Positions 2,859 through 39,604 of a stretch of 39,763 bases of DNA are shown piece after piece. The position numbers and the translations under genes are program-made. The notes under the pieces were generated by a model. That model was not told the DNA's origin. It made no database searches and saw only the letters and a program-made list of their open reading frames with translations. The stretch lies in the IMG/VR virus record IMGVR_UViG_3300037124_000040, positions 1 to 39,763 of that record; one strand, written 5' to 3'. Every line of letters begins with the position of its first letter. Position 1 is the stretch's first letter. The DNA comes from a virus. Its lineage: Duplodnaviria; Caudoviricetes.

Positions 2859-3485
2859 ATGATAAAACAAAAAGAACTAAATGAAATCCTGAGGTTGCAT
2901 CAATTATATCTCGCCGGTGATTCCAGTGGTCAGCGGGCTGACCTCCGCTGTGTAAATCTCATCGGAGCAGACCTCAGCCGTACAAACCTGAGAGATTCAA
3001 ACCTTGGTTGTGCAAGTCTCAGCAACGCGAATCTCAGTGAGGCGGATCTCAGCTGGTCAAACCTTATCGGTGCAACCCTCATCGGTGCAACCCTCAGCGG
3101 GGCAGATCTGGGATGTTCAAACCTCAGCCATGCAAATCTCAGTGGGGCAAACCTCAGCGGAGCAAATCTCATCGGGACAATCACTCGCTGGACAAATCTC
3201 ACCAGAGCCGACCTCAGCGGAGCAAACCTCATCGGTGCAAGCCTTCGCTTTACAAATCTCAGTGGCGCAAAATTGCCGCAAGGCTGTAAATATCATGTCG
3301 ACTTGCCAAAACACGACATCCTCATCATCCACGATGTTGCACACATTGGTTGTCGTTCGATGCCGCTAACGGAGTGGCTCAAGCACGGCCCAGAGATTGG
3401 CAGGCCACGAGGCTACACAGAGGATCAAATCGATCTCTACATGGAGATCCTGAGGAGTGAGCATGAATCAAGAAGAACTGAATGA
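2859..3485 (+). CDS. Pentapeptide repeat protein PRP1 (~22 repeats) with conserved N-cap and C-terminal domain
   Basis: A(D/N)Lxx repeats; N-cap KELNEILRLH; C-domain LPKHDILIIHDVAHIGC...YMEILR; ATG 2859 with SD GAGG. Confidence 0.93.
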   Translation: MIKQKELNEILRLHQLYLAGDSSGQRADLRCVNLIGADLSRTNLRDSNLGCASLSNANLSEADLSWSNLIGATLIGATLSGADLGCSNLSHANLSGANLSGANLIGTITRWTNLTRADLSGANLIGASLRFTNLSGAKLPQGCKYHVDLPKHDILIIHDVAHIGCRSMPLTEWLKHGPEIGRPRGYTEDQIDLYMEILRSEHESRRTE

Positions 3486-4221
3486 AATCCTGAGGCTACA
3501 CTTGATGTGGCTTTGCGATCTACGGGGAGGTCGACGGGCAGACCTTAGCGGGGCAGCCCTCAGCGAAGTCGATCTAAGCGGAGCAAACCTAACAGGATCA
3601 TATCTTATTGAGACAGACCTCAGCTATGCAGATCTCCGCGGAGTAGATCTTCACGGGGCAGACCTTAGCGGATCCGACCTTAAAGGGGCAAACTTCCGCG
3701 AAGCATGCCTCGATACTGCAGACCTTACCGGTGCAGACCTTATTGGTGCAAATCTCAGCGGGGCAAACCTTGCCAAAGCAGATTTCTACAAGGCAGATCT
3801 TACAAGGGCAGACCTCAGCGGGGCGAACCTCAAAGAGACAAGCCTCAAAGGAGCGATCCTCCACTGGGCCAATCTCCGCGGGGCAGACCTCACCGGAGCA
3901 AATCTCTGCGATGCAAACCTCGATACTGCAGACTTCAGAGAGACAATCCTTACCGGTGGAAATCTACATGGTGCAGATCTCCACAATACAGACCTCAAAG
4001 ACGCAAAATTACCACAGGGCTGTAAATATTATGCCGACCTGCCAAAACACGACATCATTATCGTCCATGATGTTGCGCACATCGGATGCCATTCGCGGCA
4101 GCTAACGGATTGGCTCGATCGCGGACAGTGGATTGGGACAATTAATGGCTACACTGAAGATGAGATCAAGGTCTACATGGAGATCCTAAGGAGGGAGTAT
4201 GAATCAAGAAGAACTGAATGA
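3463..4221 (+). CDS. Pentapeptide repeat protein PRP2 (~31 repeats)
   Basis: Same architecture; 23-nt overlap with PRP1. Confidence 0.93.
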   Translation: MNQEELNEILRLHLMWLCDLRGGRRADLSGAALSEVDLSGANLTGSYLIETDLSYADLRGVDLHGADLSGSDLKGANFREACLDTADLTGADLIGANLSGANLAKADFYKADLTRADLSGANLKETSLKGAILHWANLRGADLTGANLCDANLDTADFRETILTGGNLHGADLHNTDLKDAKLPQGCKYYADLPKHDIIIVHDVAHIGCHSRQLTDWLDRGQWIGTINGYTEDEIKVYMEILRREYESRRTE

Positions 4222-4783
4222 AGTCCTGAGGCTACACCTGATGTGGCTCGATAGCGAGCCCGAAGGTAGACGGGCATATTTTTACAGGGCAGATCTTCGA
4301 GGAGCAGACCTCGGCGGAGCAAATCTTACCAAGGCAGACCTCAGCGGAGCAGATCTCCGCGGAGCAAACTTTGGCAGGGCAAAACTTATCTGGGCAGTTC
4401 TCTCCGGTGCAGACCTTAGCGGCGCATGCCTCTACAAGGCAAACCTCGGCGGAGCAGATCTTCGCAATGCAGATCTTCGAGGAGCAAATCTAAGCGGAGC
4501 ATATCTTTACGGAGCAGATCTTCGAGGAGCAGACCTAAGCGGAGCAGACCTCGCCGGAATAGACCTTCACGAAGCGAAGCTCCCAAAGAATATGAGGTAT
4601 TACACTGACTTGCCGGAGCATTTGATCACGATTATTGATGACGTTGCTTCCATCGGCTGTTATCAGATGCCGCTCTCTGAGTGGCTAGAGAGAGGTGTAG
4701 TCATTGGGAGGGCTCATTTTTACACTGATGAGGAGATTGGCCTCTACATGGAGATCTTAAGGAAAGAGCATGAAATTCGATAA
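4199..4783 (+). CDS. Pentapeptide repeat protein PRP3 (~20 repeats)
   Basis: Same architecture; 23-nt overlap with PRP2. Confidence 0.93.
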   Translation: MNQEELNEVLRLHLMWLDSEPEGRRAYFYRADLRGADLGGANLTKADLSGADLRGANFGRAKLIWAVLSGADLSGACLYKANLGGADLRNADLRGANLSGAYLYGADLRGADLSGADLAGIDLHEAKLPKNMRYYTDLPEHLITIIDDVASIGCYQMPLSEWLERGVVIGRAHFYTDEEIGLYMEILRKEHEIR

Positions 4784-5144
4784 AAACTCCCTAGACTCAC
4801 TCCGTCCAGTCTGCTCGAGCGAGGAGTACCAGTCAGAGGATCCTCCTCTAAATCCGTGGGTGGAAAATCGACGCCACCGCAATCGTCTCTCTCGGGCTCG
4901 CTATCGAGCTCGATCAAAGATCGAAAGGCAGCGCGCAATACGCGCTAGACGAGCTGTGCGGAAGGCTGTGGAGCGCGGAGACATCCAGAAGCGTGAGTGT
5001 CAGATTCGTGGGCCTGGATGCCTACGATGGCCTACTGAGGCACACCACGAGTCCTACGAGCCCGACAAGTGGCTAGAGGTAGTATGGGTGTGCAAAAAAT
5101 GTCATGCACCAATGACATCACGACAGAGATGGGAGAGGGTATAA
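4770..5144 (+). CDS. Basic HNH-like/zinc-binding protein
   Basis: Arg-rich helix then CQIRGPGC...EAHHESY...LEVVWVCKKCH, a phage HNH-like motif; overlaps both neighbours. Confidence 0.7.
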   Translation: MKFDKNSLDSLRPVCSSEEYQSEDPPLNPWVENRRHRNRLSRARYRARSKIERQRAIRARRAVRKAVERGDIQKRECQIRGPGCLRWPTEAHHESYEPDKWLEVVWVCKKCHAPMTSRQRWERV

Positions 5145-5767
5145 TGGACACAGAAAAACTAAATGAAATCCTGAGATTGCATCAGATGTGGCTCAATGCC
5201 GAGCCTGGAGGCAGACGGGCAAATCTCTATGGCGCAGATCTTCAAGGAACAGACCTTCGAGGAGCAGACCTCAGCTTAGCAGACCTCCGCAGAGCAAATC
5301 TCAGCTTGGCAGATCTTAGCGGAACAGGCCTCACCAGAACAGGCCTCACCAGAGCAGACCTCACCAGAGCAGACCTCAGTGGGGCAAATCTCAAAGGAGC
5401 ATATCTCATCGTAGCAAATCTTTCCGGAGCAAGCCTTTACGTAGCAAATCTTACCGGAGCAGACCTCTTCAATGCAAATCTCACCAGAGCAGACCTCTTC
5501 AATGCAAATCTCGAAGATGTAGATCTCCACAATACAGACCTCAAAGACGCAAAATTACCACAGGGCTGTAAATATTATGCCGACCTGCCAGAACACAACA
5601 TCATCATCATCCACGATGTTGCGCACATCGGGTGCCATTCACTGCCGATAGCAGAATGGCTCGAACGCGGTCCGGAGATCGGAGAGAAGAGTGGCTATAC
5701 TCCAGATCAAATCGATGTCTACATGGAGATCCTAAGGAGAGAGCATGAAGCGAAAAGAACTGAATAA
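5144..5767 (+). CDS. Pentapeptide repeat protein PRP4 (~22 repeats)
   Basis: MDTEKLNEILRLH start at TAATG overlap; same C-domain. Confidence 0.93.
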   Translation: MDTEKLNEILRLHQMWLNAEPGGRRANLYGADLQGTDLRGADLSLADLRRANLSLADLSGTGLTRTGLTRADLTRADLSGANLKGAYLIVANLSGASLYVANLTGADLFNANLTRADLFNANLEDVDLHNTDLKDAKLPQGCKYYADLPEHNIIIIHDVAHIGCHSLPIAEWLERGPEIGEKSGYTPDQIDVYMEILRREHEAKRTE

Positions 5768-6308
5768 GATCCTGGAGTTGCACCAATTATATCTCGCCGG
5801 CGATCCCAGTGGTCAGCGGGCTGACCTAGAAGAGGCAACCCTCGTCGAGGTAAACCTTGTCAAGGCAAATCTTTCTTGGGCAGACCTCGCAGGAGCAGAC
5901 CTCACAGGAGCAAATCTCAGCGAGGCAGACCTCAAAGGAACAGTCCTCACAGGAACAGATCTCTGGAATGTAAATTTCACCAAAGCAAACCTCACCAAAG
6001 CAAATCTCGCGGGGGCAGATCTACGTATGTCAAACCTCACCGGAGCAAACCTCACAGGAGCAGACCTTTCCGATACAGACCTCGATGGGGCAAAATTGCC
6101 GAAGGGCTGTAAATATTATAATACCCTGCCACGACATAACATCGCCGTGATTTACAATGTTGCCTACATTGGATGCCGTTCGTTGTCATTGACGGATTGG
6201 CTCGTGTACGGTCCAGAGATTGGGAGTGAGGAGAACTATGCCGATGAGCAAATTGACCTCTACATGGAGATCCTAAGGAGGGAGCATGAACGCGAAAGAA
6301 CTAAATGA
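5745..6308 (+). CDS. Pentapeptide repeat protein PRP5 (~18 repeats)
   Basis: Same architecture; 23-nt overlap. Confidence 0.93.
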   Translation: MKRKELNKILELHQLYLAGDPSGQRADLEEATLVEVNLVKANLSWADLAGADLTGANLSEADLKGTVLTGTDLWNVNFTKANLTKANLAGADLRMSNLTGANLTGADLSDTDLDGAKLPKGCKYYNTLPRHNIAVIYNVAYIGCRSLSLTDWLVYGPEIGSEENYADEQIDLYMEILRREHERERTK

Positions 6309-6789
6309 AATCCTAAGTTTGCATCAGCTATGGCTCAATGCCGAGCCTGGAGGCAGACGGGCAAATCTCTATGGAAAAAATCTCAGCCAGGCAGACCTCA
6401 GCGGGGTAAACCTTCAAAGTGCAAACCTTAACGGGGCAACTTTCATCGGGGCAAATCTTAGAGGGGCAGACCTCCGCGGGGCAAACCTTATCGCAGCAGA
6501 CCTTCGTTGGGCAAATCTCAGTGGGGCACGCCTTCGGTGGGCAAATCTCTTTCGCGTGCGCCTTTATGGTGCAAAATTGCCGCAGGGCTGCAGATATTAT
6601 GACGACACACCAAAGCATGACATCATAATTATCCACGATGTTGCGCACATCGGGTGCCATTCACTGCCGATAGCAGAATGGCTCGAACGCGGTCCGGAGA
6701 TCGGAGAGAAGAGTGGCTATACTCCAGATCAAATCGACTTCTGTATGGAAATCCTAAGGAAAGAGCATGAACGCGAAAGAACTAAATGA
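6286..6789 (+). CDS. Pentapeptide repeat protein PRP6 (~14 repeats)
   Basis: Same architecture; 23-nt overlap. Confidence 0.93.
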   Translation: MNAKELNEILSLHQLWLNAEPGGRRANLYGKNLSQADLSGVNLQSANLNGATFIGANLRGADLRGANLIAADLRWANLSGARLRWANLFRVRLYGAKLPQGCRYYDDTPKHDIIIIHDVAHIGCHSLPIAEWLERGPEIGEKSGYTPDQIDFCMEILRKEHERERTK

Positions 6790-7267
6790 AATTCTAAGAC
6801 TACATTGGCTGTGGCTCAACAATGAACCCGGAGGTCGACAGGCATCTCTCCACAAAGCAAACCTCCGCTATGCAAATCTCAGCTATACAGATCTCAGGAA
6901 AGCAGCCCTCTCCGACTCAGATCTTATCGGAGCATATCTCGTCGGAGCAGACCTCAGCTATTCCGACCTCAGCGGAGCAGACCTTAGAGGAGTAGACCTC
7001 AGTGATACATATCTCCGTGGGGCGGATCTCCGAGTGGCAAAACTCCATAACGCAGAATTGCCATATGGATGTAAATATTATTGGGATCTGCCAAAACATG
7101 AAATCACCATTATCCACGATGTCGCACACATTGGTTGTCGTTCGATGCCACTAGAGGAATGGTGCAAACGCGGTCCGGAGATCGGAGAGAAGAGTGGCTA
7201 TACTCCAGATCAAATCGATGTCTACATGGAGATCTTGAAAAAACATGAACGCGAAAGAACTGAATAA
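6767..7267 (+). CDS. Pentapeptide repeat protein PRP7 (~14 repeats)
   Basis: Same architecture; 23-nt overlap. Confidence 0.93.
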   Translation: MNAKELNEILRLHWLWLNNEPGGRQASLHKANLRYANLSYTDLRKAALSDSDLIGAYLVGADLSYSDLSGADLRGVDLSDTYLRGADLRVAKLHNAELPYGCKYYWDLPKHEITIIHDVAHIGCRSMPLEEWCKRGPEIGEKSGYTPDQIDVYMEILKKHERERTE

Positions 7268-7769
7268 AATCCTAGAGTTGCACATGATGTGGCTCAACGG
7301 TGACCCAAAAGGTCGACGGGCATATTTTTACAGGGCAGATCTTCGAGGAGCAGACCTCCACGGAGTAGTCCTTAGGTTAGCATTTGTCCGTGAAGCCGAC
7401 CTCACCGGAGCAGACCTCAGCTATACAGATCTTCGAGGAGCAAATCTAAGCGGAGCAGATCTTCGTGGAGCAAACATCTGCGGCGCGAAAGTCTTCGGTG
7501 TGCGCCTTCATGGCACAAAATTGCCACAAAAATGCAAATATTACTGTAATCTCCCACGACACAATATCGTCATCATCCACGATATTATACACATCGGGTG
7601 CTTTTCGATGCAGCTGTCTGAGTGGCTATTGCGCGGCCGAGACATCGGAAAAGCAAGGGGCTATACTCCAGAGCAAATCGATCTCTACATGGAGATCTTG
7701 AAAAAACATGAGGTAAAAAATGAAATGGCCAAAACGGTTAAACCAGTACGTCTGGATGCCAGACAGTAG
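7245..7769 (+). CDS. Pentapeptide repeat protein PRP8 (~13 repeats)
   Basis: Same architecture; 23-nt overlap; C-terminus runs 50 nt into the amidase gene. Confidence 0.92.
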   Translation: MNAKELNKILELHMMWLNGDPKGRRAYFYRADLRGADLHGVVLRLAFVREADLTGADLSYTDLRGANLSGADLRGANICGAKVFGVRLHGTKLPQKCKYYCNLPRHNIVIIHDIIHIGCFSMQLSEWLLRGRDIGKARGYTPEQIDLYMEILKKHEVKNEMAKTVKPVRLDARQ

Positions 7770-8211
7770 AGACTTTTCCAATCAGAAATCTATACCCAAG
7801 GGAATAGTGATCCATAGCGGATCGAGAAGCCCTAACGTCGCAGAATACGTCGAGAAGGAGCCTGATGGGAGGCGAGTCAGTTACCATTTTGCGTGGTCGG
7901 GCAGACGAGGTGAGTTTGTGCAGATGGTCTCCTTGCAAAAACGAGCTTGGCACGCGGGGTCCGAGGGCAACAATTGGATCGGCGTATGCCTACCCGGACC
8001 ATGGGATGGACCTAGGGACCCCGGCCAGAGATGTTTGTTCCGTCAGTTGATTGCTGATTTGACTGAGGAATTCGAGGGACAGCTCCGATACTGGACCCAG
8101 CACAGCGATTTGAATGATAAGAAAAGAGATCCAGGTCCTGGATTCAGTCCTGATTGGATGACCGGACTCGGACTGACATGGTGGGTCCCTGGCATGCCAG
8201 GGATGGAGTGA
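7720..8211 (+). CDS. N-acetylmuramoyl-L-alanine amidase (Amidase_2 family), probable endolysin
   Basis: GIVIHS...VSYHF...QMVSLQKRAWHAG...NNWIGVCL...HSDL...KRDPG zinc amidase motifs. Confidence 0.88.
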   Translation: MKWPKRLNQYVWMPDSRDFSNQKSIPKGIVIHSGSRSPNVAEYVEKEPDGRRVSYHFAWSGRRGEFVQMVSLQKRAWHAGSEGNNWIGVCLPGPWDGPRDPGQRCLFRQLIADLTEEFEGQLRYWTQHSDLNDKKRDPGPGFSPDWMTGLGLTWWVPGMPGME

Positions 8212-8224
8212 TAGGAGAGCTAAC

Positions 8225-8506
8225 ATGTACACACCAAAACCGATCGATACATCTGGTATCAATTTGCCCTTGGGTTTAGCAGAGATTGTTGAAAAACTCG
8301 CGGAAAACAGCCACGACCTCTGGGCTCATGGACGTATCACCGAGGGCTGGACCTATGGCCCAACGCGGGATGACGTGAAAAAGCAGCACCCGGACCTTGT
8401 ACCTTACGCAGATCTCCCAGAATCGGAGAAGGAATACGATCGGAAAGCCTCTGTGGAGACGATCAAAGCGGTCATGGCCTTGGGATACACTGTCCGCTTT
8501 GATTGA
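8225..8506 (+). CDS. Stand-alone RyR (ryanodine receptor repeat) domain protein
   Basis: YTPKPIDTS..LP...EKLAENSHDLWA...GWTYGPTRDD.KKQHPDLVPYADLPESEKEYDR...GY is the RyR domain consensus; SD AGGAG. Confidence 0.92.
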   Translation: MYTPKPIDTSGINLPLGLAEIVEKLAENSHDLWAHGRITEGWTYGPTRDDVKKQHPDLVPYADLPESEKEYDRKASVETIKAVMALGYTVRFD

Positions 8507-8528
8507 TTAACGACAGGAGGGCTGAGTC

Positions 8529-8786
8529 ATGAAAAACCTATTGGCAAGATTTTTTCCAGTACTATCGCAACCGACTCTCACACTCGATGAGATAGCCGGA
8601 AAGCCTTATCATTTCCAGATATTGGAATACGGACGCTGGATGAGGAGCAAGATTCAATTGTCTATGCGAATGGGGATAGACCTAGATGTAATGATCTTGG
8701 TTTTTGAAGGGGCGTTGGATGCACTCTTGCGAGCAAGGCATGCCGCAGATCCAAATCGATCGCTAAAGGAGTACTATTTGCGGTGA
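8529..8786 (+). CDS. Hypothetical protein
   Basis: SD AGGAGG; last plus-strand gene, overlaps convergent gene by 13 nt. Confidence 0.6.
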   Translation: MKNLLARFFPVLSQPTLTLDEIAGKPYHFQILEYGRWMRSKIQLSMRMGIDLDVMILVFEGALDALLRARHAADPNRSLKEYYLR

Positions 8787-9052
8787 TCGAGGCTTTTTGG
8801 CGGGAGCCTTTCTCGCAAAAGAGTTTCAATTGCTGTTAGCCGTTTCTCTATTGTTATCAGCGACTTTTGAAGAGTTTCACGTGAAACATATCGAATGATC
8901 CCAGGGTGAGCCCGCTCAATAGACCTCTCCTCATGCCGGCTGACGTCCCCATATCTGGCAAGGGCAATTGCTCCGGACCCCACCATAGATATCGCCGCTG
9001 CCAATGCAATAAGCCTTCCGAGAGTGATTTTGATTTCCTTAATCTTTTCCAT
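8774..9052 (-). CDS. Small membrane protein, holin candidate
   Basis: One N-terminal hydrophobic helix plus coiled-coil tail (LITIEKRLTAIETLL); end of virion operon. Confidence 0.5.
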   Translation of the reverse strand: MEKIKEIKITLGRLIALAAAISMVGSGAIALARYGDVSRHEERSIERAHPGIIRYVSRETLQKSLITIEKRLTAIETLLRERLPPKSLDHRK

Positions 9053-23074: not shown

Positions 23075-23416
23075 TTAATTCAATGACCTTTTCAAAACGA
23101 ACGGGATTTCACGATCTCTAATTAAATAGAGATGATTCCCTAATTCTACTGCTCTCCCCGTCATCATCACAGTGTCTCCCGGAGAGCAGCATACTGGGCG
23201 GAATGTTCCATCCTGCAATGGTGCGCCTGGACCACAGCTAATGACCTCCGCCAGCGGAGTCTGATCTTCAACCTGATCAGGGATATGGAGCCCTCCCTCG
23301 GTAGTACCCGGAGGGACATATCTGACCAGAACATTGTCGAAAGTAGGAACGATATCGCTGGCTTTTAGTTGGTAGCCAGCGATGCTACTGGGCTTGATAA
23401 GTCTGCCCTTTCTCAT
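23075..23416 (-). CDS. groES: Co-chaperonin GroES/Cpn10-like protein
   Basis: IVPTFDNVLVR...TTEGGLHIPD...AEVISCGPG...PGDTV...LIRDREI matches Cpn10 signature. Confidence 0.85.
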   Translation of the reverse strand: MRKGRLIKPSSIAGYQLKASDIVPTFDNVLVRYVPPGTTEGGLHIPDQVEDQTPLAEVISCGPGAPLQDGTFRPVCCSPGDTVMMTGRAVELGNHLYLIRDREIPFVLKRSLN

Positions 23417-25332
23417 GATGCCTCCATTCCGGCCGGAAGGGCCGGTGGCATACCTCCAGATGCATTACCAGTTGGTCCCATCGGAGCAGCTGGCAAGGGC
23501 ATTTCTGGAGCTTGAGCCGAAGCTAACATGCTGTCGGCTTCCTCGATCCAGTCCATTAGTAATTTTACATTCTCTGGTGGCGCACCTTGAGTACGCGCGC
23601 GGAGCATGGCAGAGGTCATCATCGCCAAGCCAAGTGTCAAATCCTGGAATGGCTCAGGACGTACTTCCTCACCCTTCACCAGCATCAGTTCGATCTGCAT
23701 CTCGATATCCTCGTATGCAGCTGTCTCGAGGGATGCAAATTGCTCAAGATCTGGCATCCTTAGCAGGACCAACCCCTGCTTATGGTCGATGAATCCACCC
23801 TCGATTAAATTTTCTACTTCGCGGATTCGACCAGCTGGCTCATGCGGCAAAGACGAGCTCGGAAAAATCGAGATCTCATACATGTCCTTGTCCATATTGA
23901 CGTCAGACCATTTTATTTGCTCGATCCCCTTCGAGGTACCATTCCGGATGTAGAAATTCGTTCGATAATCCCCATCCCGTGAGTGGATTTCACCACCAGC
24001 GCAAATTGTTAGCCCAGCTGAACTGTGATGGAAATCATCCCACTCAATATTGGTCTGAGCGTGCCGGCCGGATTCCGTATCTTTCAGCACCATCAGCCCT
24101 CTGCCTGAATCAATCCCAGGTGGCTTGATACTTTGGGCAGACAACTCAGAAACTCCGGAATCTCGATATACTCGTTGGTCCAAATCGAAAACAAAACGAA
24201 ACACCTCAGAGGAAATCGAAGTCGGCATACCAGTCTTTGGAAGCGATGACCCTTTCCTGACAGGGATTAGATTCCCAGAAGTATTTTTCATGTGCTCCTT
24301 TTTAATGGAGCCCTCTTCATAGTAGGTGTTCGTAACCGAATGCAGGTGCATTGAATCCTGGATTCGGCCAAGCAGTTTGTTTTCCTGCCCTTGGATTGGC
24401 TCCATCTCCTCCACAAGACCTTGCGGATACCACCCAATCAGTGGATCTTGCCACCGAAACATCGCGAAGGGGAAGGATTCAATCTCCCATTGCCGCCATT
24501 TCGGCGGAGTCAACGTCCGCCCCTCTATGCAGACTGCATGGTATCCATCGTCAGCCCCCCACCCAGATGGAAGATGCCAAGCCTCTGCGACTTTCACCAG
24601 GTCTGTGATGATCTTCTTTCCCTCCCGCACGACGGCATTATCCTTCACAGCCTTGTCGATCGCGCGCTCATTGTCCGCTCGCCAGCGCTGTGGCAGTGAT
24701 TCATGGCAAAATCGCGCCATCAGTCGTTCAGCAGGGATGTATTTTACCCGTATTAGCTGACGAGTCTCACCATTAAGCGCAGCCTGTTCATCAACAACCA
24801 ATTCCCAAGGTGGGACAGGCTCGAATTCAACATGCTTGTACCCAGGGTAGATGTGCATTGCACCTATCCCAACTGCAGCCGCATAGTGAAAGATTTTTAC
24901 AGTTTTCTGATAAAATTTAGCCCGCTCCCATTCACCCAGAATGAACTTTTCCAAACCTCGGGCCTTCACCTTCTGGCTCCAGGCATTCGGCCCAGACGTC
25001 GACGTCTGGATTTTTACCATCGGGCGTTGTGTCGCGATTCGCGCGCCGAGAGTTTTGATACAATTTTTGATCGGATTGAGAGCTAGTCGACGCTCAGTTT
25101 TCTTCCGATTCTTGAATGCCTGCCTAGAAGTTGCCCGATCGCCAGGGTGTAACCCTGTAACAACATGATTTAAGTAGACTCCAAGGTATCTTTTCCAGTA
25201 GCTCTCGCGCCGGTTGATCTCCTCCTCCAACCGCGAAAGCGAATTGAAGACGCTTTCCTCCGGAGTCTTGCTTTTCCAGAAATGCTGCTGCTCCTTATGG
25301 ATCATACCAAGGCCTTTCCTCTCCGGATTCAT
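23413..25332 (-). CDS. Portal protein
   Basis: ~639 aa between TerL and scaffold; FPFAMFRW...GLVEEMEPIQ...N, SGVSELS...PGIDSGRGL podovirus portal motifs. Confidence 0.85.
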   Translation of the reverse strand: MNPERKGLGMIHKEQQHFWKSKTPEESVFNSLSRLEEEINRRESYWKRYLGVYLNHVVTGLHPGDRATSRQAFKNRKKTERRLALNPIKNCIKTLGARIATQRPMVKIQTSTSGPNAWSQKVKARGLEKFILGEWERAKFYQKTVKIFHYAAAVGIGAMHIYPGYKHVEFEPVPPWELVVDEQAALNGETRQLIRVKYIPAERLMARFCHESLPQRWRADNERAIDKAVKDNAVVREGKKIITDLVKVAEAWHLPSGWGADDGYHAVCIEGRTLTPPKWRQWEIESFPFAMFRWQDPLIGWYPQGLVEEMEPIQGQENKLLGRIQDSMHLHSVTNTYYEEGSIKKEHMKNTSGNLIPVRKGSSLPKTGMPTSISSEVFRFVFDLDQRVYRDSGVSELSAQSIKPPGIDSGRGLMVLKDTESGRHAQTNIEWDDFHHSSAGLTICAGGEIHSRDGDYRTNFYIRNGTSKGIEQIKWSDVNMDKDMYEISIFPSSSLPHEPAGRIREVENLIEGGFIDHKQGLVLLRMPDLEQFASLETAAYEDIEMQIELMLVKGEEVRPEPFQDLTLGLAMMTSAMLRARTQGAPPENVKLLMDWIEEADSMLASAQAPEMPLPAAPMGPTGNASGGMPPALPAGMEAS

Positions 25333-26791
25333 CCTCTATTTGCGCAGCCATTACCATCCGTTCCTCTTCTCTCCTGTACCACTCCTCGCTATGTAAGTCG
25401 ATCTTCGGCTCTTCCTCTTCATGTATGTAATGGTATGCATGTCGGTATGCGGCAAGATGCGCATCGCATGAATCATTAGGTTTGTTTGGATACTCTACTC
25501 GCTTCCCTGTCTGCTTTGCGATTTTCCAGGGAAGAGAACTCATTTCTTCCCTATGACACTCCGTGGAACTCTCCAAAAGCTGGACATATCCTAGATTATA
25601 GTCACTGTTCAAAGTTTTTATCCAGTCGTACTTTTTCGGCTTTTCCGACTGAAGAAGCGGTATGTCGTATCGACGAGCAAGTTCCTCGAAGTACTGCTTG
25701 TGCGCATAGTCGCATACAATATCAAGGATCTCACCATGTACAGTGTCAACATAATCTCTGTATTTCGTGATGTGGGACGCAATTGCATCCATGCGCATAT
25801 GGGACTCTTTGTAAGCATCAAGTTCCAGAAGGAGCGGAATTTTCGATGTAGGTCGCCAGGTATTAAATGAAAATGCTGTCGCATCATCCCACCCTAAATC
25901 GAGCCCAAGCACAAATCGATCACCTGGTTTGTGTTCCCAATCATCTCGCCAGAGATTCCTGACAGGATCATATTCATAAACCAACTTCCCGGTATCATGA
26001 ACATTTTCGCCTAGATACGTCCGACGAAACCAGACTCGTGTCTCTAGTTCAGGATCATTCTTCCTTTTTCTCGCAATGTCCTGTTTCCACTGACTGCGCA
26101 TGGAAGGATTGTCGAGCGTGGTCCACGAATGACAGCTCCATCCAGGATAAGACGGAGATTCTACTCCTGACATATTTTTCCGAGGACCAAAGCCCTTGAT
26201 GATCTCATAAAACAAACCATGAGGGTGCCGCGGAGGAGTGGACATCAAATAGAGTTGGCCCCGCTCGTCCACTAGTCGAGGGCCGATTGTATCCTCTACC
26301 ATCTCCTCAAGGTTAAGAGTGGTGTAAAATGCTGCCTCATCAAATGCGACTTTTCTGAGCTTGATCCCCAAAAACCGATCCAACGCTGCAAGATTATCAG
26401 ACCCAAAAAGCTGAATTTGACTGCCCGTGGGGAGAGTCACTTTCAGCTTATGCTCTTGCATCCTGCATCCAAGAGCATAATCCCTATTTATTTTTGCTAG
26501 AATTTTCCAGGCGATTTCTTCCACTTGTTTTTCGATCAAGCAGAAGAAAAAATATGTAGAAAATTCCCGCTCTAAGCCGTCGGACACAAAATCAGTAAGC
26601 ACCATAGTGCTTTTGCCGGCTCGACCAGTTGTCCAAATGAGTTTTCGAGGACTTGGATCATCAGCCGCAAGCCGCTGTTCCCGGAATAGGGTGTCGCGGA
26701 TCCCTGTCCTGGATTTAGCGGAGACTAAAAGCGTCTGTGAATCCATGCTACACCAGGGAAGGATAATTACACAGATGACAACCTTAACCAC
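25295..26791 (-). CDS. terL: Terminase large subunit
   Basis: Walker A GRAGKST, Walker B VAFDEAAF, STP motif, nuclease GLDLGWDD and NDSCDA; start may be 26746. Confidence 0.9.
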   Translation of the reverse strand: MVKVVICVIILPWCSMDSQTLLVSAKSRTGIRDTLFREQRLAADDPSPRKLIWTTGRAGKSTMVLTDFVSDGLEREFSTYFFFCLIEKQVEEIAWKILAKINRDYALGCRMQEHKLKVTLPTGSQIQLFGSDNLAALDRFLGIKLRKVAFDEAAFYTTLNLEEMVEDTIGPRLVDERGQLYLMSTPPRHPHGLFYEIIKGFGPRKNMSGVESPSYPGWSCHSWTTLDNPSMRSQWKQDIARKRKNDPELETRVWFRRTYLGENVHDTGKLVYEYDPVRNLWRDDWEHKPGDRFVLGLDLGWDDATAFSFNTWRPTSKIPLLLELDAYKESHMRMDAIASHITKYRDYVDTVHGEILDIVCDYAHKQYFEELARRYDIPLLQSEKPKKYDWIKTLNSDYNLGYVQLLESSTECHREEMSSLPWKIAKQTGKRVEYPNKPNDSCDAHLAAYRHAYHYIHEEEEPKIDLHSEEWYRREEERMVMAAQIEDESGEERPWYDP

Positions 26792-27017
26792 TATAATCCT
26801 CTGGCAAATCCACCCTTATCACATTTAAAGCTGGATAAAATACCTTCCGCCCAATGGCGAATTCCACCAGAAATCCTCCGACGCATCCATCAAGGACATG
26901 AGGGCGGATTGTCCGATCCCACGTCCGGCCATCGATGTATGGATGTTGATCCATGTCCTTGTTCTTCAAAAGAATCCCATTGATTATCGTCGGAAGTTCT
27001 TTTCGCTTTTTTACCAT
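26784..27017 (-). CDS. Hypothetical protein
   Basis: Fills operon gap; overlaps TerL start. Confidence 0.55.
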   Translation of the reverse strand: MVKKRKELPTIINGILLKNKDMDQHPYIDGRTWDRTIRPHVLDGCVGGFLVEFAIGRKVFYPALNVIRVDLPEDYSG

Positions 27018-27441
27018 TTATCACCAAATATGGGTTTGACTTCAATTGCCATTTTTCCCGAAAAAACGGCAATGCTGGCATTGGATGCGTAGTGTAAATA
27101 GTCTTTCGGCCAAGACAGGTGAAGGTCGCCCTCATCAGTGCCGTACCGATTCCATATGTCCTCCACATCTTACGCACATACAGCATATGTAAAACAGGGG
27201 TCTCCCCCTGGAATTCTCCACAAATAAAACCAAAGATTTGTTCCGGGTGATCTGGCTCCACTGCCATCAAAGGCTTTGCCCGAGACACGATCGGTTTGAT
27301 CACTGTCTCAACATGGTATTTCATCTGGGATTTTGAAAATCCCTTCAGTATTCCATGAGCTCGCTTTGCTGTAGCCCTCCATGCATCAATGACCAGTGGT
27401 AAGTCGACACGCTCCACGAACGTCCTCATCATAATTTTCAT
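26890..27441 (-). CDS. GNAT-family acetyltransferase
   Basis: IFGFICGE...LHMLYVRKMWRTYGIGTALM acetyl-CoA binding motif A. Confidence 0.82.
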   Translation of the reverse strand: MKIMMRTFVERVDLPLVIDAWRATAKRAHGILKGFSKSQMKYHVETVIKPIVSRAKPLMAVEPDHPEQIFGFICGEFQGETPVLHMLYVRKMWRTYGIGTALMRATFTCLGRKTIYTTHPMPALPFFREKWQLKSNPYLVINGKKAKRTSDDNQWDSFEEQGHGSTSIHRWPDVGSDNPPSCP

Positions 27442-27957: not shown

Positions 27958-28815
27958 TTACTTCAAGACATCCATCGCCCTCCACATGAGATGCTCCAAT
28001 CTTCGATCGGCAAGCCAGTCAATGGCTTTGTGTAAATCTTTACTGCCTGAACAAACTTTCAGTGGGATATCTTTCAATTCCACCAAACGTCTAGTTTCAT
28101 CCAAGCGATCGAGTTGCTCTAAGATGAGGCGAGCTGCGTTGAGAGTAAATTCTGTTTTATCCGATCCATTTAACGCTTTTTGGAGCTCCTCGAATGCAGT
28201 TGCGGAGTTAGATTTTTGCAGTATGTACAGAAAATCAGGACAGGCCTGTAAAATTGCACGAGCACCTTTATCCCCTACCCCAACAATGCCTGGAATCCCG
28301 TCACCAGAGTCTCCGACAATCGTCTGGTAATCCAACCACTCCTCCGGATTCCATCCGAATAAATCTCTGCAATTCATGACATCAAGGAAGGTCTCCTCTT
28401 CCAGCACTCTTAATAGGCACACTTCCGGCCCGATTAATTGCACGAGATCTTTGTCCACGGTGACGATAAGTTTGCGGCCACTGCGCTGTCGACACAGGGT
28501 AGCTATTACATCATCGCCCTCTCCGGGCCCTTCGAATTGATGGAATCCAAATATCTGAAAAATCTCTTTTACTTCGGCGACTTGTTCAAAGTATTCTTTG
28601 GGCTTCTTCTTCCGATTTCCCTTATATTTAGGGTAAATGCTATTCCGGACATCTCGACTTCGCGGGCCATCCCAGGCGATGTAGGTCATTTTTGGCTGAT
28701 ATATTTGAGTCCATCGCAGAGTCCGCGAGATCATCGATGGGAGGCAATCCTCTGTGGCACAATAATCTCTATACGAAATAGCTGTACCGTCTACAATTAT
28801 AGAAGAAAAATTCAA
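27958..28815 (-). CDS. 5'-3' exonuclease / flap endonuclease (PolI N-terminal/T5 exo-like)
   Basis: IIVDG, AWDG...RNSIYPKYKGNR, EGDDVIATL, VTVDKDLVQL, IVGDSGDGIPGIVGVGDKGA. Confidence 0.93.
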   Translation of the reverse strand: MNFSSIIVDGTAISYRDYCATEDCLPSMISRTLRWTQIYQPKMTYIAWDGPRSRDVRNSIYPKYKGNRKKKPKEYFEQVAEVKEIFQIFGFHQFEGPGEGDDVIATLCRQRSGRKLIVTVDKDLVQLIGPEVCLLRVLEEETFLDVMNCRDLFGWNPEEWLDYQTIVGDSGDGIPGIVGVGDKGARAILQACPDFLYILQKSNSATAFEELQKALNGSDKTEFTLNAARLILEQLDRLDETRRLVELKDIPLKVCSGSKDLHKAIDWLADRRLEHLMWRAMDVLK

Positions 28816-29153
28816 CGAGAACCGTCCTTCAACACTTTGCCAATCCTGTCATCGCACCCGATCCCCCTGAGTTCATACTCTAAAAGAAAAAGCAAATTTG
28901 ACGCGGCATGTGCAAGATGACTCTTACCACTATCTGCGTCTGTGCTTTCTCCGCTATTCCACGCGAGAAGGTGCCCAATCGCGGCATTCAGCAGATTCGA
29001 CCAGCCAGTACCAGCACACCAGCTATAGTCCCCGTAGAGTTTTGCACCATGGAGCAATACCTCCGCTATCTCCACCATCGCACGTGGTGGAATAGAGGCA
29101 AATAACGGCCTCTCGTCATCAAATCTTTGTATTTTTTTACGCTTCATTTTCAC
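28812..29153 (-). CDS. dATP/dGTP diphosphohydrolase domain protein (DUF5664-like)
   Basis: IPPRAMVEIAEVLLHGAKLYG..SW..G...AAIGHLLAW.SGE..D.DSGKSHLAHAASNLLFL. Confidence 0.85.
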   Translation of the reverse strand: MKMKRKKIQRFDDERPLFASIPPRAMVEIAEVLLHGAKLYGDYSWCAGTGWSNLLNAAIGHLLAWNSGESTDADSGKSHLAHAASNLLFLLEYELRGIGCDDRIGKVLKDGSR

Positions 29154-31818: not shown

Positions 31819-32311
31819 TTTTTCCTCGAATCTGCCGCAACCCATAGGCTGCAATCAATGCCGCATCGGCGCGACCGTCTTTTTTGCCTCCCCGTGGTCC
31901 AACCAAGGGCAGTCCGGAAGGGAACATCCTAGATGCCTGCAAAATTGAACGGGCCTTCCCTTCACTTTTGGGGAGACCTTTAAGCATAGTCCCCATCCAC
32001 TCCTTTGGACGGACCGTGCCATACCGCAGGCCTAATCCAGCACACAACCCTTGCCATATCCCGTACCCCAGCCCAGTAGAGAGCCCACTCTGCGCGGACT
32101 GAGCAGGCCGTGTACTCGCGGCCTCTATCCAGACGTAGATGAGAGGTTCATCGCGATTTATGGCGAAAACTTCCAAAAAATTCCGCACGGCCGTAATGTT
32201 GTAAAATTTCTTCCCGATGAGTGGAGTATCCATCCACTCGATCACTCGATATTTCTCATTGATGGCCACGGCTGCGCCGTGTAGCCCGATGTCAACGCCT
32301 ATACTGATCAT
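31811..32311 (-). CDS. RuvC-like Holliday junction resolvase
   Basis: IGVDIGLHGA, VWIE, GLGYGIWQG, VRPKEW, DGRADAALIA. Confidence 0.88.
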   Translation of the reverse strand: MISIGVDIGLHGAAVAINEKYRVIEWMDTPLIGKKFYNITAVRNFLEVFAINRDEPLIYVWIEAASTRPAQSAQSGLSTGLGYGIWQGLCAGLGLRYGTVRPKEWMGTMLKGLPKSEGKARSILQASRMFPSGLPLVGPRGGKKDGRADAALIAAYGLRQIRGKNG

Positions 32312-33044
32312 AATGTCTCCTCAAAACCTCCATGTAAGCGGCGATCCGCTCTGGAGAGTAGCCATTCTCCCTGCCAATCTCCGGACCGCGCTCGAGCCAC
32401 TCCGACAACGGTAGCGAATGGCAACCGATGTGCGCGACATCGTGAACGACTAGGATATCGTACCCGGGCAAATAGTTGTAGAAAGCACAGCCTTTTGGTA
32501 ATTTTGCCCTGCTAAATTCTGCCCAGCATAAGTCCGCTCCACTGAGGTCTGCTCCGGTGAGGTCTGCATTGCTGAAATCTGCATTGCGGAGGTTCGCTCC
32601 GCGAAGGATTGCTCTGCGGAGGTTTGCTCTGCTAAAATCTGCCTCTTCAAGGTCTGTGCCGCAGAGGTTCGCTCTGCTGAGATCTGCCCCGGGCAGGTCT
32701 GCTCTACTAAGGTTTGAACCACGGAGGTCTGCCCCGATAAAATATGCCTTAGTGGCAGTTGCCCCAGCAAGATCTGCCCCACGGAGTTTTGCCCCTATGA
32801 GATATGCCCCTCGGAGATCTGCACCGACAAAGTTCGCTCCAATGAGTTCTGCATTGCTGAGGTCTGCACCGACAAGGTTCGCCAAGTGGAGACTTATTCC
32901 GCGAAGATTTACTCCGATGAGGTTTACTCCGAGAAGGTCCTCCCCGCTAAGGTTTACTCCGCTAAGGTCTGGCCGGGGTCCCCCCTTGCCAGCGAGGAAT
33001 AGCCGATGATCCTTTAGGATCTCGCTGAGGTATTTTTGATTCAT
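32292..33044 (-). CDS. Pentapeptide repeat protein PRP9 (~31 repeats) with the same C-terminal domain
   Basis: MNQKYLSEIL start; HDVAHIGCHSLPLSEWLERGPEIG C-domain; stop overlaps RuvC start by 20 nt. Confidence 0.92.
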   Translation of the reverse strand: MNQKYLSEILKDHRLFLAGKGGPRPDLSGVNLSGEDLLGVNLIGVNLRGISLHLANLVGADLSNAELIGANFVGADLRGAYLIGAKLRGADLAGATATKAYFIGADLRGSNLSRADLPGADLSRANLCGTDLEEADFSRANLRRAILRGANLRNADFSNADLTGADLSGADLCWAEFSRAKLPKGCAFYNYLPGYDILVVHDVAHIGCHSLPLSEWLERGPEIGRENGYSPERIAAYMEVLRRHYDQYRR

Positions 33045-33054
33045 TTTTCTCTCC

Positions 33055-33480
33055 TCACTCGTTCTCAAATAACGCGCCATAACCACCATCATTATCCCAA
33101 ATTGCTTCACTGATGTATGCCCCCCGAAAATATGCTCCGGCGATGTCTGCCCCTCTGAGATCCGCCCCTTTTAAATCCGCCCTGGTGAACTCTGCTCCAC
33201 GAAGGTCTGCCCCTCGAAGGTGTGCTCCATGTAGATATGCCCCGGTGAGATCTGCTCCGCGGAGGTCTGTTCCCTCAAAATATGCATCAGTGAGGTCTGC
33301 GCCGCGGAAGCTTGCTCCGCGACAATCTGCGCCCCGGAAGTCCGCCCCGATGAGCTTTTCACCGGTGAAGACTACCTTGCGGAGATCTTCTCCCCGAAAA
33401 TTTGCCCGTTCACCTCCGGGATTGCCTTCGAGGTATAGCCGATGCCAATCCAGAATCTCATTTATTTCTTCTTGGTCCAT
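33055..33480 (-). CDS. Pentapeptide repeat protein PRP10, lacks the C-terminal domain
   Basis: MDQEEINEILDWH N-cap, ADL/AYF repeats. Confidence 0.9.
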   Translation of the reverse strand: MDQEEINEILDWHRLYLEGNPGGERANFRGEDLRKVVFTGEKLIGADFRGADCRGASFRGADLTDAYFEGTDLRGADLTGAYLHGAHLRGADLRGAEFTRADLKGADLRGADIAGAYFRGAYISEAIWDNDGGYGALFENE

Positions 33481-34060: not shown

Positions 34061-34141
34061 ATCTTGACATCATATATTATATTGTCAAGGCGAAAACTTT
34101 TTTTATTTTCATCTTGACATCTTTCCCCTTCGAGCTACTAT
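34061..34141. promoter_or_regulatory. Divergent early promoters
   Basis: Plus TTGACA(34114)-N16-TACTAT; minus TTGACA(34088-34083)-N16-CAAGAT; inverted repeat CTTGACA-N13-TGTCAAG (34063-34089). Confidence 0.75.
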
Positions 34142-34174
34142 TAACGTAGAACATAACAACAGGGAGAGCAAAAA

Positions 34175-35420: not shown

Positions 35421-35593
35421 AAAGACGCGTGTCAGGGGTAGACTACCTCTGGATAGTCTGTCCTAGTTGCCACAAGAACACCAACTCCAGCTGTCAGCGC
35501 TGCCGTGGCGCTGGGGGATGGTATGAATCACTGGCCAGTGTGGCCGGATTCGTCATCCAGAAAAAAAGAAAACTTTCCCCGTTTTCATCTTGA
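35417..35593 (+). CDS. 58-aa zinc-finger protein (not in ORF track)
   Basis: MKRRVSGVDYLWIVCPSCHKNTNSSCQRCRGAGGWY...; ATGA overlap, SD AGGAGG. Confidence 0.7.
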   Translation: MKRRVSGVDYLWIVCPSCHKNTNSSCQRCRGAGGWYESLASVAGFVIQKKRKLSPFSS

Positions 35594-35617
35594 CAACATC
35601 TTCTCCTGAGCTACTAT
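35590..35617 (+). promoter_or_regulatory. Early promoter, near-copy of the 34114 promoter
   Basis: TTTTCATCTTGACA...GAGCTACTATTAA...AACAACAGGGAGA shared by both; TTGACA-N16-TACTAT. Confidence 0.8.
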
Positions 35618-35656
35618 TAATATAGTGGCTAACAGAGAACAACAGGGAGAAAAAAG

Positions 35657-38284: not shown

Positions 38285-39328
38285 CTGGCAGGAGGTCAGG
38301 AACTGTCCAAGCTACGTCTCTAACACAAGTTCCCGTCCACGGCTTTTTCCTTGATGGAAAAAGAAGAGCGCCTTGGAGTGCACTCTCTCGGAGAGACCAT
38401 ACTCCATCTCCTCTTGTCTTAGCTATTGACGGCCACGCACAATCTCTCATCCGGACTACCCCCTCGCGTGGAGAAAAAAAAGAAAAAAGAAAAAATCAAC
38501 CCTGTACTGAAACTGTCTTGGAAATGTCATCCAGGCAGCGATCGTGATTTCATCCCCCTGAGAAAATATGAGGAAACGAAGTTTCCGTCACCCCCAGCTT
38601 GCTGGGAGCCTAGCGGCTTGAGCGAAAAAGTAATGAGATGCAAGGTACTTACGGAATTCGTTCCCTAGACAGAGCGCAGGTGGCCCAAGGGAAAAAGTTA
38701 CAAGCAGGCGACACGAATTTCACGTGCAGAGAGGATTGAATCCTCCCAGAGGCTATGTGCCTCTCGAGCCCTCGCAGTGTATCTCTGCTCGGCCGAGTCC
38801 AACCACAGAACCTAACCTCGCGACAAGGCATAGCAGAGCCGCAATGGTCCGCCGCCTTCTCAAGGCGTCGCTTAGCTTTGTCCCGGTAGGGACTGAACTC
38901 ATTGGCGCTCGGGAGTGCAGCCATGCTATGCCAGCCGACTTCGGTTTACCTTCCCGCTCAATCCGTGAGTTGTGGCTCACGATCATCCCCGTAGAAAAAG
39001 ACCGAGGCGGAATTATATTTTCTTTTGGAGATGGCGTAGAGGCGGAACAGATAGTGCCGTCGTGAAAACCCTTAAGGGTTCCTTTACTGGAGGCTGACTC
39101 CCTCGGGGGGTCCTGCTTGTTGGACCCATGATGATGTAAGACCATCATAACTTTCATGTGGCCTTTTTGTGAGCTTTTGTCAAGGGGAGACTGGTCAATG
39201 AGGGGGGGATGATTAATGGGCACAAAAAGAAGCGCCCCTCTGGACCATTGCAGTACAGAGGGGCGAAAACCTTCTACAAGCAGAGATAAACTACCCTTCT
39301 ATGTAGTTGACTTAGGTCATCTTGTCAA

Positions 39329-39369
39329 GAAAAAAAAAGCGCCCATCTGTACTGCTATACAGATGGGCG
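39329..39369 (-). terminator. Intrinsic terminator (array unit 2)
   Basis: 12-bp perfect stem CGCCCATCTGTA/TACAGATGGGCG followed by T9 on minus strand. Confidence 0.8.
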
Positions 39370-39444
39370 AAGTCTATGGAGGAAAATCCAATGAATAAAA
39401 AAAAGCGTAATATAGGTTTAGTTAATCTGGGTCATGTCGTCAAG

Positions 39445-39492
39445 AAAAAAAATGCCCCCCTGCATTCTTACCCGTTATCTATGCAGAGGGGC
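39445..39492 (-). terminator. Intrinsic terminator (array unit 3)
   Basis: 12-bp stem with one G-U wobble on minus (C-A mismatch on plus), then T8. Confidence 0.75.
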
Positions 39493-39565
39493 GAAGCCCA
39501 TGGAATGGAACCCATGACCAAAAGCAAAATGCAATATAGGTTTAGTTAATTTAGACTCTCTTGTC

Positions 39566-39604
39566 AAAAAAAAGTGCCCCTCCCTGCGCAGTTCAGGGAG
39601 GGGC
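39566..39604 (-). terminator. Intrinsic terminator (array unit 4)
   Basis: 11-bp stem GCCCCTCCCTG/CAGGGAGGGGC then T8 running into TTGACA. Confidence 0.78.

Follow-up and report, generated by a model that had tools for sequence, protein, structure and literature searches.

The locus described here raises the question of why a small phage genome should keep twelve intact and diverged genes for pentapeptide-repeat proteins, eight of them gathered in one array. The window analyzed is the whole 39,763-base virus record IMGVR_UViG_3300037124_000040 (Duplodnaviria; Caudoviricetes; CheckV 100%, classed linear), which its predicted terminase, portal, SU10-type adaptor, capsid, DnaB helicase, RecT-like, and resolvase genes mark as a podovirus-like phage, and which is present in four wetland-metagenome runs (X1 to X4; four study codes, possibly one campaign, with X1 perhaps the source sample). 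The answer that we favor, with about even confidence and from sequence comparison, is that the array (positions 2859–7769) represents an old, still-recombining expansion of one accessory gene, the copies of which probably form a counter-defense repertoire with the rod surface setting the defense that is blocked.

Each of the twelve genes is intact, matches Pfam family PF00805 above its cut-off, and keeps its rod in frame, with 11–31 units compared to the PF00805 minimum of eight contiguous consensus pentapeptides. Their union covers 6,713 nt, or 16.9% of the window, in agreement with the 12 copies and ~17% of the original prediction, which had been made from the sequence alone. Eight genes lie on the forward strand as A1 (2859–3485), A2 (3463–4221), A3 (4199–4783), A4 (5144–5767), A5 (5745–6308), A6 (6286–6789), A7 (6767–7267), and A8 (7245–7769), and they carry exactly the predicted 22, 31, 20, 22, 18, 14, 14, and 13 whole units, respectively, plus a final partial unit. 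These eight genes are all present, but the arrangement is not strictly head to tail as had been described: a 124-residue open reading frame (ORF) resembling an HNH endonuclease (4770–5144, forward; PHROG 2340, E 1.4e-11; one 88% relative) separates A3, the end of which overlaps its start, from A4. The four further copies are found at the predicted positions. On the reverse strand, B2 (32292–33044; 31 units and an end domain) overlaps the start of a Holliday-junction resolvase gene, and B1 (33055–33480; an N-cap and 20 units) stands at the head of the replication operon; C1 (36537–36989; 11 units and a diverged end domain) and C2 (36986–37519; 25 units) are on the forward strand. All three parts, namely an N-cap helix, a rod, and an end domain, are combined in 10 of the 12 copies, with B1 and C2 having no end domain. 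The N-cap and C-terminal domain had been called fixed; they are indeed conserved, but the end domain is confined to these ten copies and is 52–87% identical among them in amino acids (55–90% in nucleotides).

Copies this diverged are not an assembler's duplicate, and contigs of four runs bridge several of the junctions, so the array does not appear to be an assembly artefact, an outcome that would have undone the original prediction. Exact X1 contigs connect A1 to A2, A4 to A5, and A8 to the amidase gene that follows it, whereas X4 contigs connect the HNH gene to A4; a full-length A1 allele is also contained in a single X4 contig, with 26 differences and no gap. Because no listed metagenome piece spans the whole array, the exact order of eight genes on one molecule is not proven. 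The order could in principle be a chimera of co-occurring strains with fewer copies each, and X1 does hold at least two strains. However, the exact or near-exact contigs just described join its parts, and depth in X1 is similar over the array (100–241) and on its flanks (86–232), making such a chimera extremely unlikely in our view.

Contigs of these runs also allow copy number and repeat counts to be compared between relatives, a check proposed with the original prediction, and they reveal strains that drop, swap, and recombine copies. In an X2 contig, the HNH gene is joined straight to A6 (joint 5153->6296), skipping A4 and A5; in X2 and X3, the HNH gene is preceded by an A8-like end (joint 7700->4760); and in a second X1 strain, an A8-like end is followed by another repeat gene. 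Twelve sibling proteins have 9–25 units, several of them with counts or rods that are absent from the window. P0004, P0008, and P0012 are chimeric alleles: P0008 combines an A3-like cap with a new rod and the end of A1, and P0004 the A6 rod with another end. P0001 is, like P0004, a mosaic allele of A6, and the A3 allele P0013 differs from its counterpart at one rod residue. Within the window, exact tracts of 107, 70, 68, and 52 nt, the first three shared by A4 with A6, A2, and A7, respectively, stand out from a background identity of 64–76% between copies, which shows that they have exchanged sequence recently. A related strain (run X4, record 22) also has ~900 extra bases at 2390–2395, next to a helix-turn-helix gene upstream of the array.

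The way in which the genes are coupled may have favored this expansion. At all six repeat-gene junctions, a 23-nt overlap, such as that of A2 with A1, carries the next start, and at five of the six an AGGA(G) motif lies just before that start, inside the last codons of the upstream gene. Since each 3′ end brings the next start and usually a ribosome site, a new or duplicated copy would be translated at once. The design could alternatively be that of a self-propagating cassette of little benefit, with overlaps and HNH gene easing a duplication that the phage tolerates. The loss of copies in other strains would be in keeping with such a cassette, as would another two small paralogs (698–1353) that have their 3′ end in common. 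Nevertheless, all 12 copies are intact and the end domain is under purifying selection (see below), while devoting 17% of a packaging-limited genome to such a passenger would be a large cost; we regard this explanation as decidedly unlikely.

Between A1 and an XRE-type helix-turn-helix gene on the reverse strand (2382–2768; Pfam HTH_31, E 2.4e-8) lies an AT-rich divergent control region, read from the sequence, with two back-to-back TTGACA boxes (2769–2858). This is likely the promoter region of the array; no full sigma-70 site within it passed the promoter scan. At the other end, A8 overlaps by 50 nt the start of a same-strand gene for an N-acetylmuramoyl-L-alanine amidase, likely the endolysin (7720–8211; Pfam Amidase_2, E 2.2e-13), and terminator-like matches in the array region are no more frequent than chance gives. 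This coupling might indicate a late or envelope role, in which the proteins are made together with the amidase and act in lysis, the envelope, or the virion. The array strand is, however, opposite to that of the structural genes, the other four copies reside in replication and small-gene operons, and the named relatives discussed below are found in early operons. A late role is thus considered very unlikely.

An AF2 model of A1 (predicted local distance difference test score 95) shows the cap helix, a regular solenoid, and then four strands and two helices; the solenoid is predicted to be a quadrilateral beta-helix, and all of the Foldseek PDB matches listed are pentapeptide solenoids. The end domain belongs to no Pfam family, and no clear solved fold was found for it in structure searches. 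Its profile nevertheless recovers 294 clusters among 1.84 billion representatives. In a partner scan of 139 of the 150 listed proteins (the other 11 being seven proteins covered before, two fragments, and two false positives), the domain is accompanied by pentapeptide repeats in 56, YdcK in 24, hexapeptide repeats in 10, and ankyrin repeats, DUF4116, or a Gly-rich region in one each, with no Pfam match in the remaining 46. Of the proteins P0160, P0141, and P0163, one has two copies of the domain following Gly-rich repeats, and the others have a single copy following DUF4116 or ankyrin repeats. A structure search of the ESM Atlas agrees with a shared end domain (TM 0.79–0.88 over 68 residues in nine of ten rows). 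In a separate word-based search, the partners are pentapeptide repeats in 67 of 67 matches, and a closer subfamily of the end domain hence keeps the pentapeptide rod.

Across 211 aligned rows, gathered with a profile seeded on the motif itself, the Cys and Trp of the end domain are each 100% conserved and the His 88%, with the His/Cys/Trp/Tyr set ranging from 88 to 100%. One predicted hairpin has the His on one side and the Cys on the other, and its secondary structure suggests that the two residues may be close together. The same N-cap is in turn found with several other end domains, at loci that, among those fetched, hold one to three repeat genes. To judge from these combinations, cap, rod, and end domain behave as swappable modules, and the end domain is an unnamed one, with an invariant cysteine, at least 294 sequence clusters, and several unrelated rods.

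The ratio of amino-acid-changing to silent substitution rates (dN/dS) in the end domain has a median of 0.2, with every finite value at or below 0.46 and silent divergence (dS) of ~1 (36 pairs of nine copies, C1 being excluded for insertions and deletions and six silent-saturated pairs being counted as zero). This combination of low dN/dS and high dS indicates copies that are old and maintained. Both the end domain and the inward positions of the rod are under purifying selection, and 29 of 34 rod changes in six allele pairs fall at outward positions, a bias that the fold by itself would permit and that is no proof of selection for variety. The rods are highly varied, their 241 units comprising 176 distinct ones. 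A tree of 59 end domains brings together the 10 copies of the window and 11 sibling alleles, with four further rows inside (support 88/96, bootstrap unsettled), which points to expansion within this phage lineage. The prediction of a constant scaffold and a variable surface is thus borne out by the end-domain dN/dS, the varied rods, and the allele mosaics, and the design is both maintained by selection and subject to change from strain to strain.

A precedent for what such a protein might do is gp60 of Vibrio phage 24 (24_60; KJ572844.2, 12900–13322). Like the array proteins, gp60 has an N-cap helix with a His, an uninterrupted A(D/N)Lxx rod, and a GC..EW end domain, and it matches the family alignment at 99.7% in hhalign. 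It is, however, a single copy with a near-uniform rod, compared to 12 diverged copies here, and its end domain is a sister subtype, the second half of which differs from that of the array. In the accessible part of a preprint (bioRxiv 10.1101/2024.07.02.601686), six escapers from Sucellos, a RexAB-like defense, are all reported to carry Y112R and N110N/N115D in 24_60, and deletion of the gene strengthened Sucellos defense; the authors postulate an anti-defense role. The repeat was also sequenced anew by these authors, whose numbering disagrees with the deposited record. In that record, the motif N-x-Y-x-x-N occurs once, in the rod, 70 residues (14 units) away from the escaper numbering, whereas the counterpart in phage CP-T1 has four such ANLYG units. 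As far as the preprint's accessible text allows, the escape changes would therefore fit the rod only, as swaps of outward residues to neighboring unit types. The CP-T1 counterpart (JQ177061.1, L029 51–548) is an intact 165-residue ORF with 13 units that is unannotated in its record. Unit number thus differs between these near-identical phages, at 8 in the deposited gp60 and 13 in CP-T1, and in-frame repeat losses between the two have been reported (PMC5690320).

Several points weigh against a counter-defense repertoire read out by the rod surface. No sign of positive selection was found: pN/pS is 0.93 at position i+1 and 0.73 at i+2 in a crude unit-versus-unit test, so the comparison of outward positions proposed with the original prediction gave no excess of amino-acid over silent change. 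Median DNA identity between rod units is lower in the 12 window genes (0.57) than in 24 other phage repeat genes (0.76), which speaks for the repertoire, but the 12 do not count as independent cases, and the variety is just as great in 3 of the 24. The gp60 end domain aligns with that of the array over 16 residues only, the hairpin-GC-W part (E 2.6e-4 among 203 pieces). The gp60 escape changes shift the rod toward its commonest unit, which may reflect stability and not new specificity, and the functional support from gp60 is one experiment in a preprint available in part. The coupling of the array to the amidase gene could mean late expression. Finally, an end domain shared with unrelated rods also fits a rod that is a mere spacer.

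This last point leads to an explanation by dosage or redundancy: the end domain would do the sole job, the rod would be a tolerant spacer or folding scaffold, additional copies would raise output, and rod differences would be drift. A surface pN/pS near 1, the 88–100% conservation of the end-domain His, Cys, Trp, and Tyr in rows gathered with the motif-seeded profile, and the presence of the domain behind pentapeptide, YdcK, hexapeptide, ankyrin, DUF4116, and Gly-rich regions would all be expected if this were so. It does not account for the two copies kept without any end domain, for copies that have diverged to dS ~1 without collapse, unlike transient identical amplifications, or for gp60 escape changes that, from what the preprint's accessible part gives, fit the rod only. 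Dosage alone is therefore an unlikely explanation, and the rod-directed repertoire remains our preferred one.

If the rods do bind host proteins, the mode of binding need not be the one first proposed, in which the array proteins mimic DNA in the manner of MfpA and Qnr and bind to gyrase or another DNA-binding enzyme. MfpA, Qnr, AlbG, and McbG share with the array a right-handed beta-helix of quadrilateral shape, predicted in the case of the array, and Foldseek matches to MfpA and Qnr are found at 20–26% identity. Three rods are clearly acidic, namely A2 (net charge −14), A5 (−9), and C2 (−17, the most acidic), and since Sucellos is RexAB-like, a mimic of its trigger is conceivable. On the other hand, the best scores fall far under the NCBIfam cut-offs (69 versus 240 for Qnr and 67 versus 360 for MfpA, with four of the 12 copies scored), and nine of the 12 rods are near neutral or basic. 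By residue count, rod charge ranges from −17 to +5 (A6, with A8 also basic), three of the 12 rods reach −0.45 per unit or less, and 10 of the 12 copies have a net positive charge at positions i+1 and i+2; the rod of the deposited gp60 has a net charge of +2. Gyrase-binding members are described, in the available portions of two papers, as dimers that are typically negative and are linked through their C-terminal helices (PMC10886550, PMC8145042). A single such dimer helix (PMC8145042) contrasts with the separate 69-residue end domain of the array, which also sits behind other rod types. We consider DNA mimicry highly unlikely for these reasons. Of the earlier proposal, the counter-defense role retains a precedent in gp60, to the extent that the preprint is accessible, while its MfpA/Qnr-like mode is not supported.

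Taken together, the preferred reading would run as follows. The accessory gene unit consists of an N-cap helix, a pentapeptide rod, and the unnamed His/Cys/Trp end domain. Unequal crossing-over, between caps and end domains, would increase the number of copies, homologous recombination, which the embedded HNH gene might raise, would mix them, and the 3′ overlap with its ribosome site would let each new copy be translated at once. Expression would be early, from the divergent control region. The rod would bind host sensors or effectors, whereas the end domain would supply a common function, be it capping, partner binding, or a His-Cys site. A bolder version, which we put forward as rather doubtful, is an antibody-like phage counter-defense library: recombination, possibly HNH-driven, would mix caps, rods, and ends among about a dozen self-coupling cassettes, each rod would pick a different defense protein, and the universal His/Cys end, common to YdcK, hexapeptide, and ankyrin rods, would disable the target.

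The surroundings of the array offer some further observations. The amidase gene is on the array strand, opposite to the structural operon, the last gene of which (8774–9052) looks holin-like by eye, with one hydrophobic stretch. A stand-alone RyR-domain gene (8225–8506; Pfam PF02026, E 5e-36) follows the amidase gene and is absent in contigs of X2 and X3, which join 8208 to 8523. The small paralog pair noted above (698–1102 and 1027–1353, in the region 435–1383) has repeated gene ends encoding EEMKK and the same end-carries-next-start pattern as the array. A promoter-like cassette, TTGACA-16-TACTAT, occurs twice (34092–34158 and 35568–35634) ahead of the small-gene operon ending in C1/C2, and a 41-nt repeat is present three times near the end of the record (39304–39583). 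Elsewhere, a GroES-like co-chaperonin is encoded between the genes for scaffold and portal, and a gene for a GNAT acetyltransferase lies upstream of the terminase large subunit (entry 23075–23416 and 26890–27441 for the pair). The record also has a dATP/dGTP pyrophosphohydrolase gene (PHROG 801) and a terminase (entry 28812–29153 and 25295–26791), the sole cultured match of the latter being cyanophage S-2L at 28%; purZ was not found among the 48 ORFs scanned in the window.

Proteins of this design are widespread: with A6 as the query, 451 of the 50,697 phage records give a match at E ≤ 1e-5. Closest in layout, besides gp60, are orf232 of the Salmonella phages ST64T and L, epsilon34 gp42, ST104 ORF19, and their kin, which have a related end domain (E 5e-7 in a set of 14 sequences). 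The end domain of orf232 itself aligns with that of the array over 31 columns at 50% probability. These orf232-type genes number one to three per fetched locus, with mostly homogenized rods. In ST64T, orf232 belongs to the early left operon, where it has the anti-restriction gene ral on one side and a superinfection-exclusion gene on the other, and a Listeria phage relative is placed in a transcribed operon by the accessible part of another study (PMC12282133). Changes in unit number also recur: from what is available of the respective sources, L and ST64T differ by a 15-bp, in-frame unit loss, and the Caulobacter phages RW and GB2A by a 375-bp deletion in a repeat gene (PMC11053796). Long reads are reported, in the part of the source at hand, to enrich such repeats 26-fold over assemblies (PMC9238414), and pentapeptide arrays may for this reason be under-counted. 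Phage proteins with a YdcK solenoid (PF18836) or hexapeptide repeats (PF00132) carry the same His..IGC..W..IG..Y..Y end domain as the array proteins but differ in rod type.

As tandem candidate counter-defense copies with a nuclease gene in the locus, the array resembles the SegB-driven amplification in phage T6 and poxvirus gene accordions. In the available text of PMC13096335, a homing endonuclease (SegB) can amplify anti-defense genes, HNH enzymes being left open; for the HNH gene embedded here, this offers a lead by analogy and no evidence. The nuclease of the array is HNH-like, with a putative role, whereas SegB belongs to the GIY-YIG enzymes, and the accordions of T6 and poxviruses consist of transient identical copies for dosage, in contrast to the old, diverged copies here. 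The original prediction knew of no characterized phage system of this design. This still holds for multi-gene arrays of capped pentapeptide proteins, of which, as of the shared end domain, we found no description in the open-access literature (subscription journals being largely outside the search), but not for the protein design, which is already known and has in gp60 one member with functional evidence, taken from the accessible part of its preprint.

What stands out is the density, at 17% of a 40-kb genome, together with rods of unusual diversity, shuffling at the strain level, a nuclease gene within the array, and an end domain found across rod types. Capped pentapeptide proteins are common in phages, yet only one was found with experimental evidence, and 12 natural variants on one scaffold form a ready panel for asking whether rod or end domain carries the function. 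Eukaryotic viruses keep diversified paralog repertoires with ankyrin families against defenses, and the panel also bears on whether phages keep such repertoires against several defenses.

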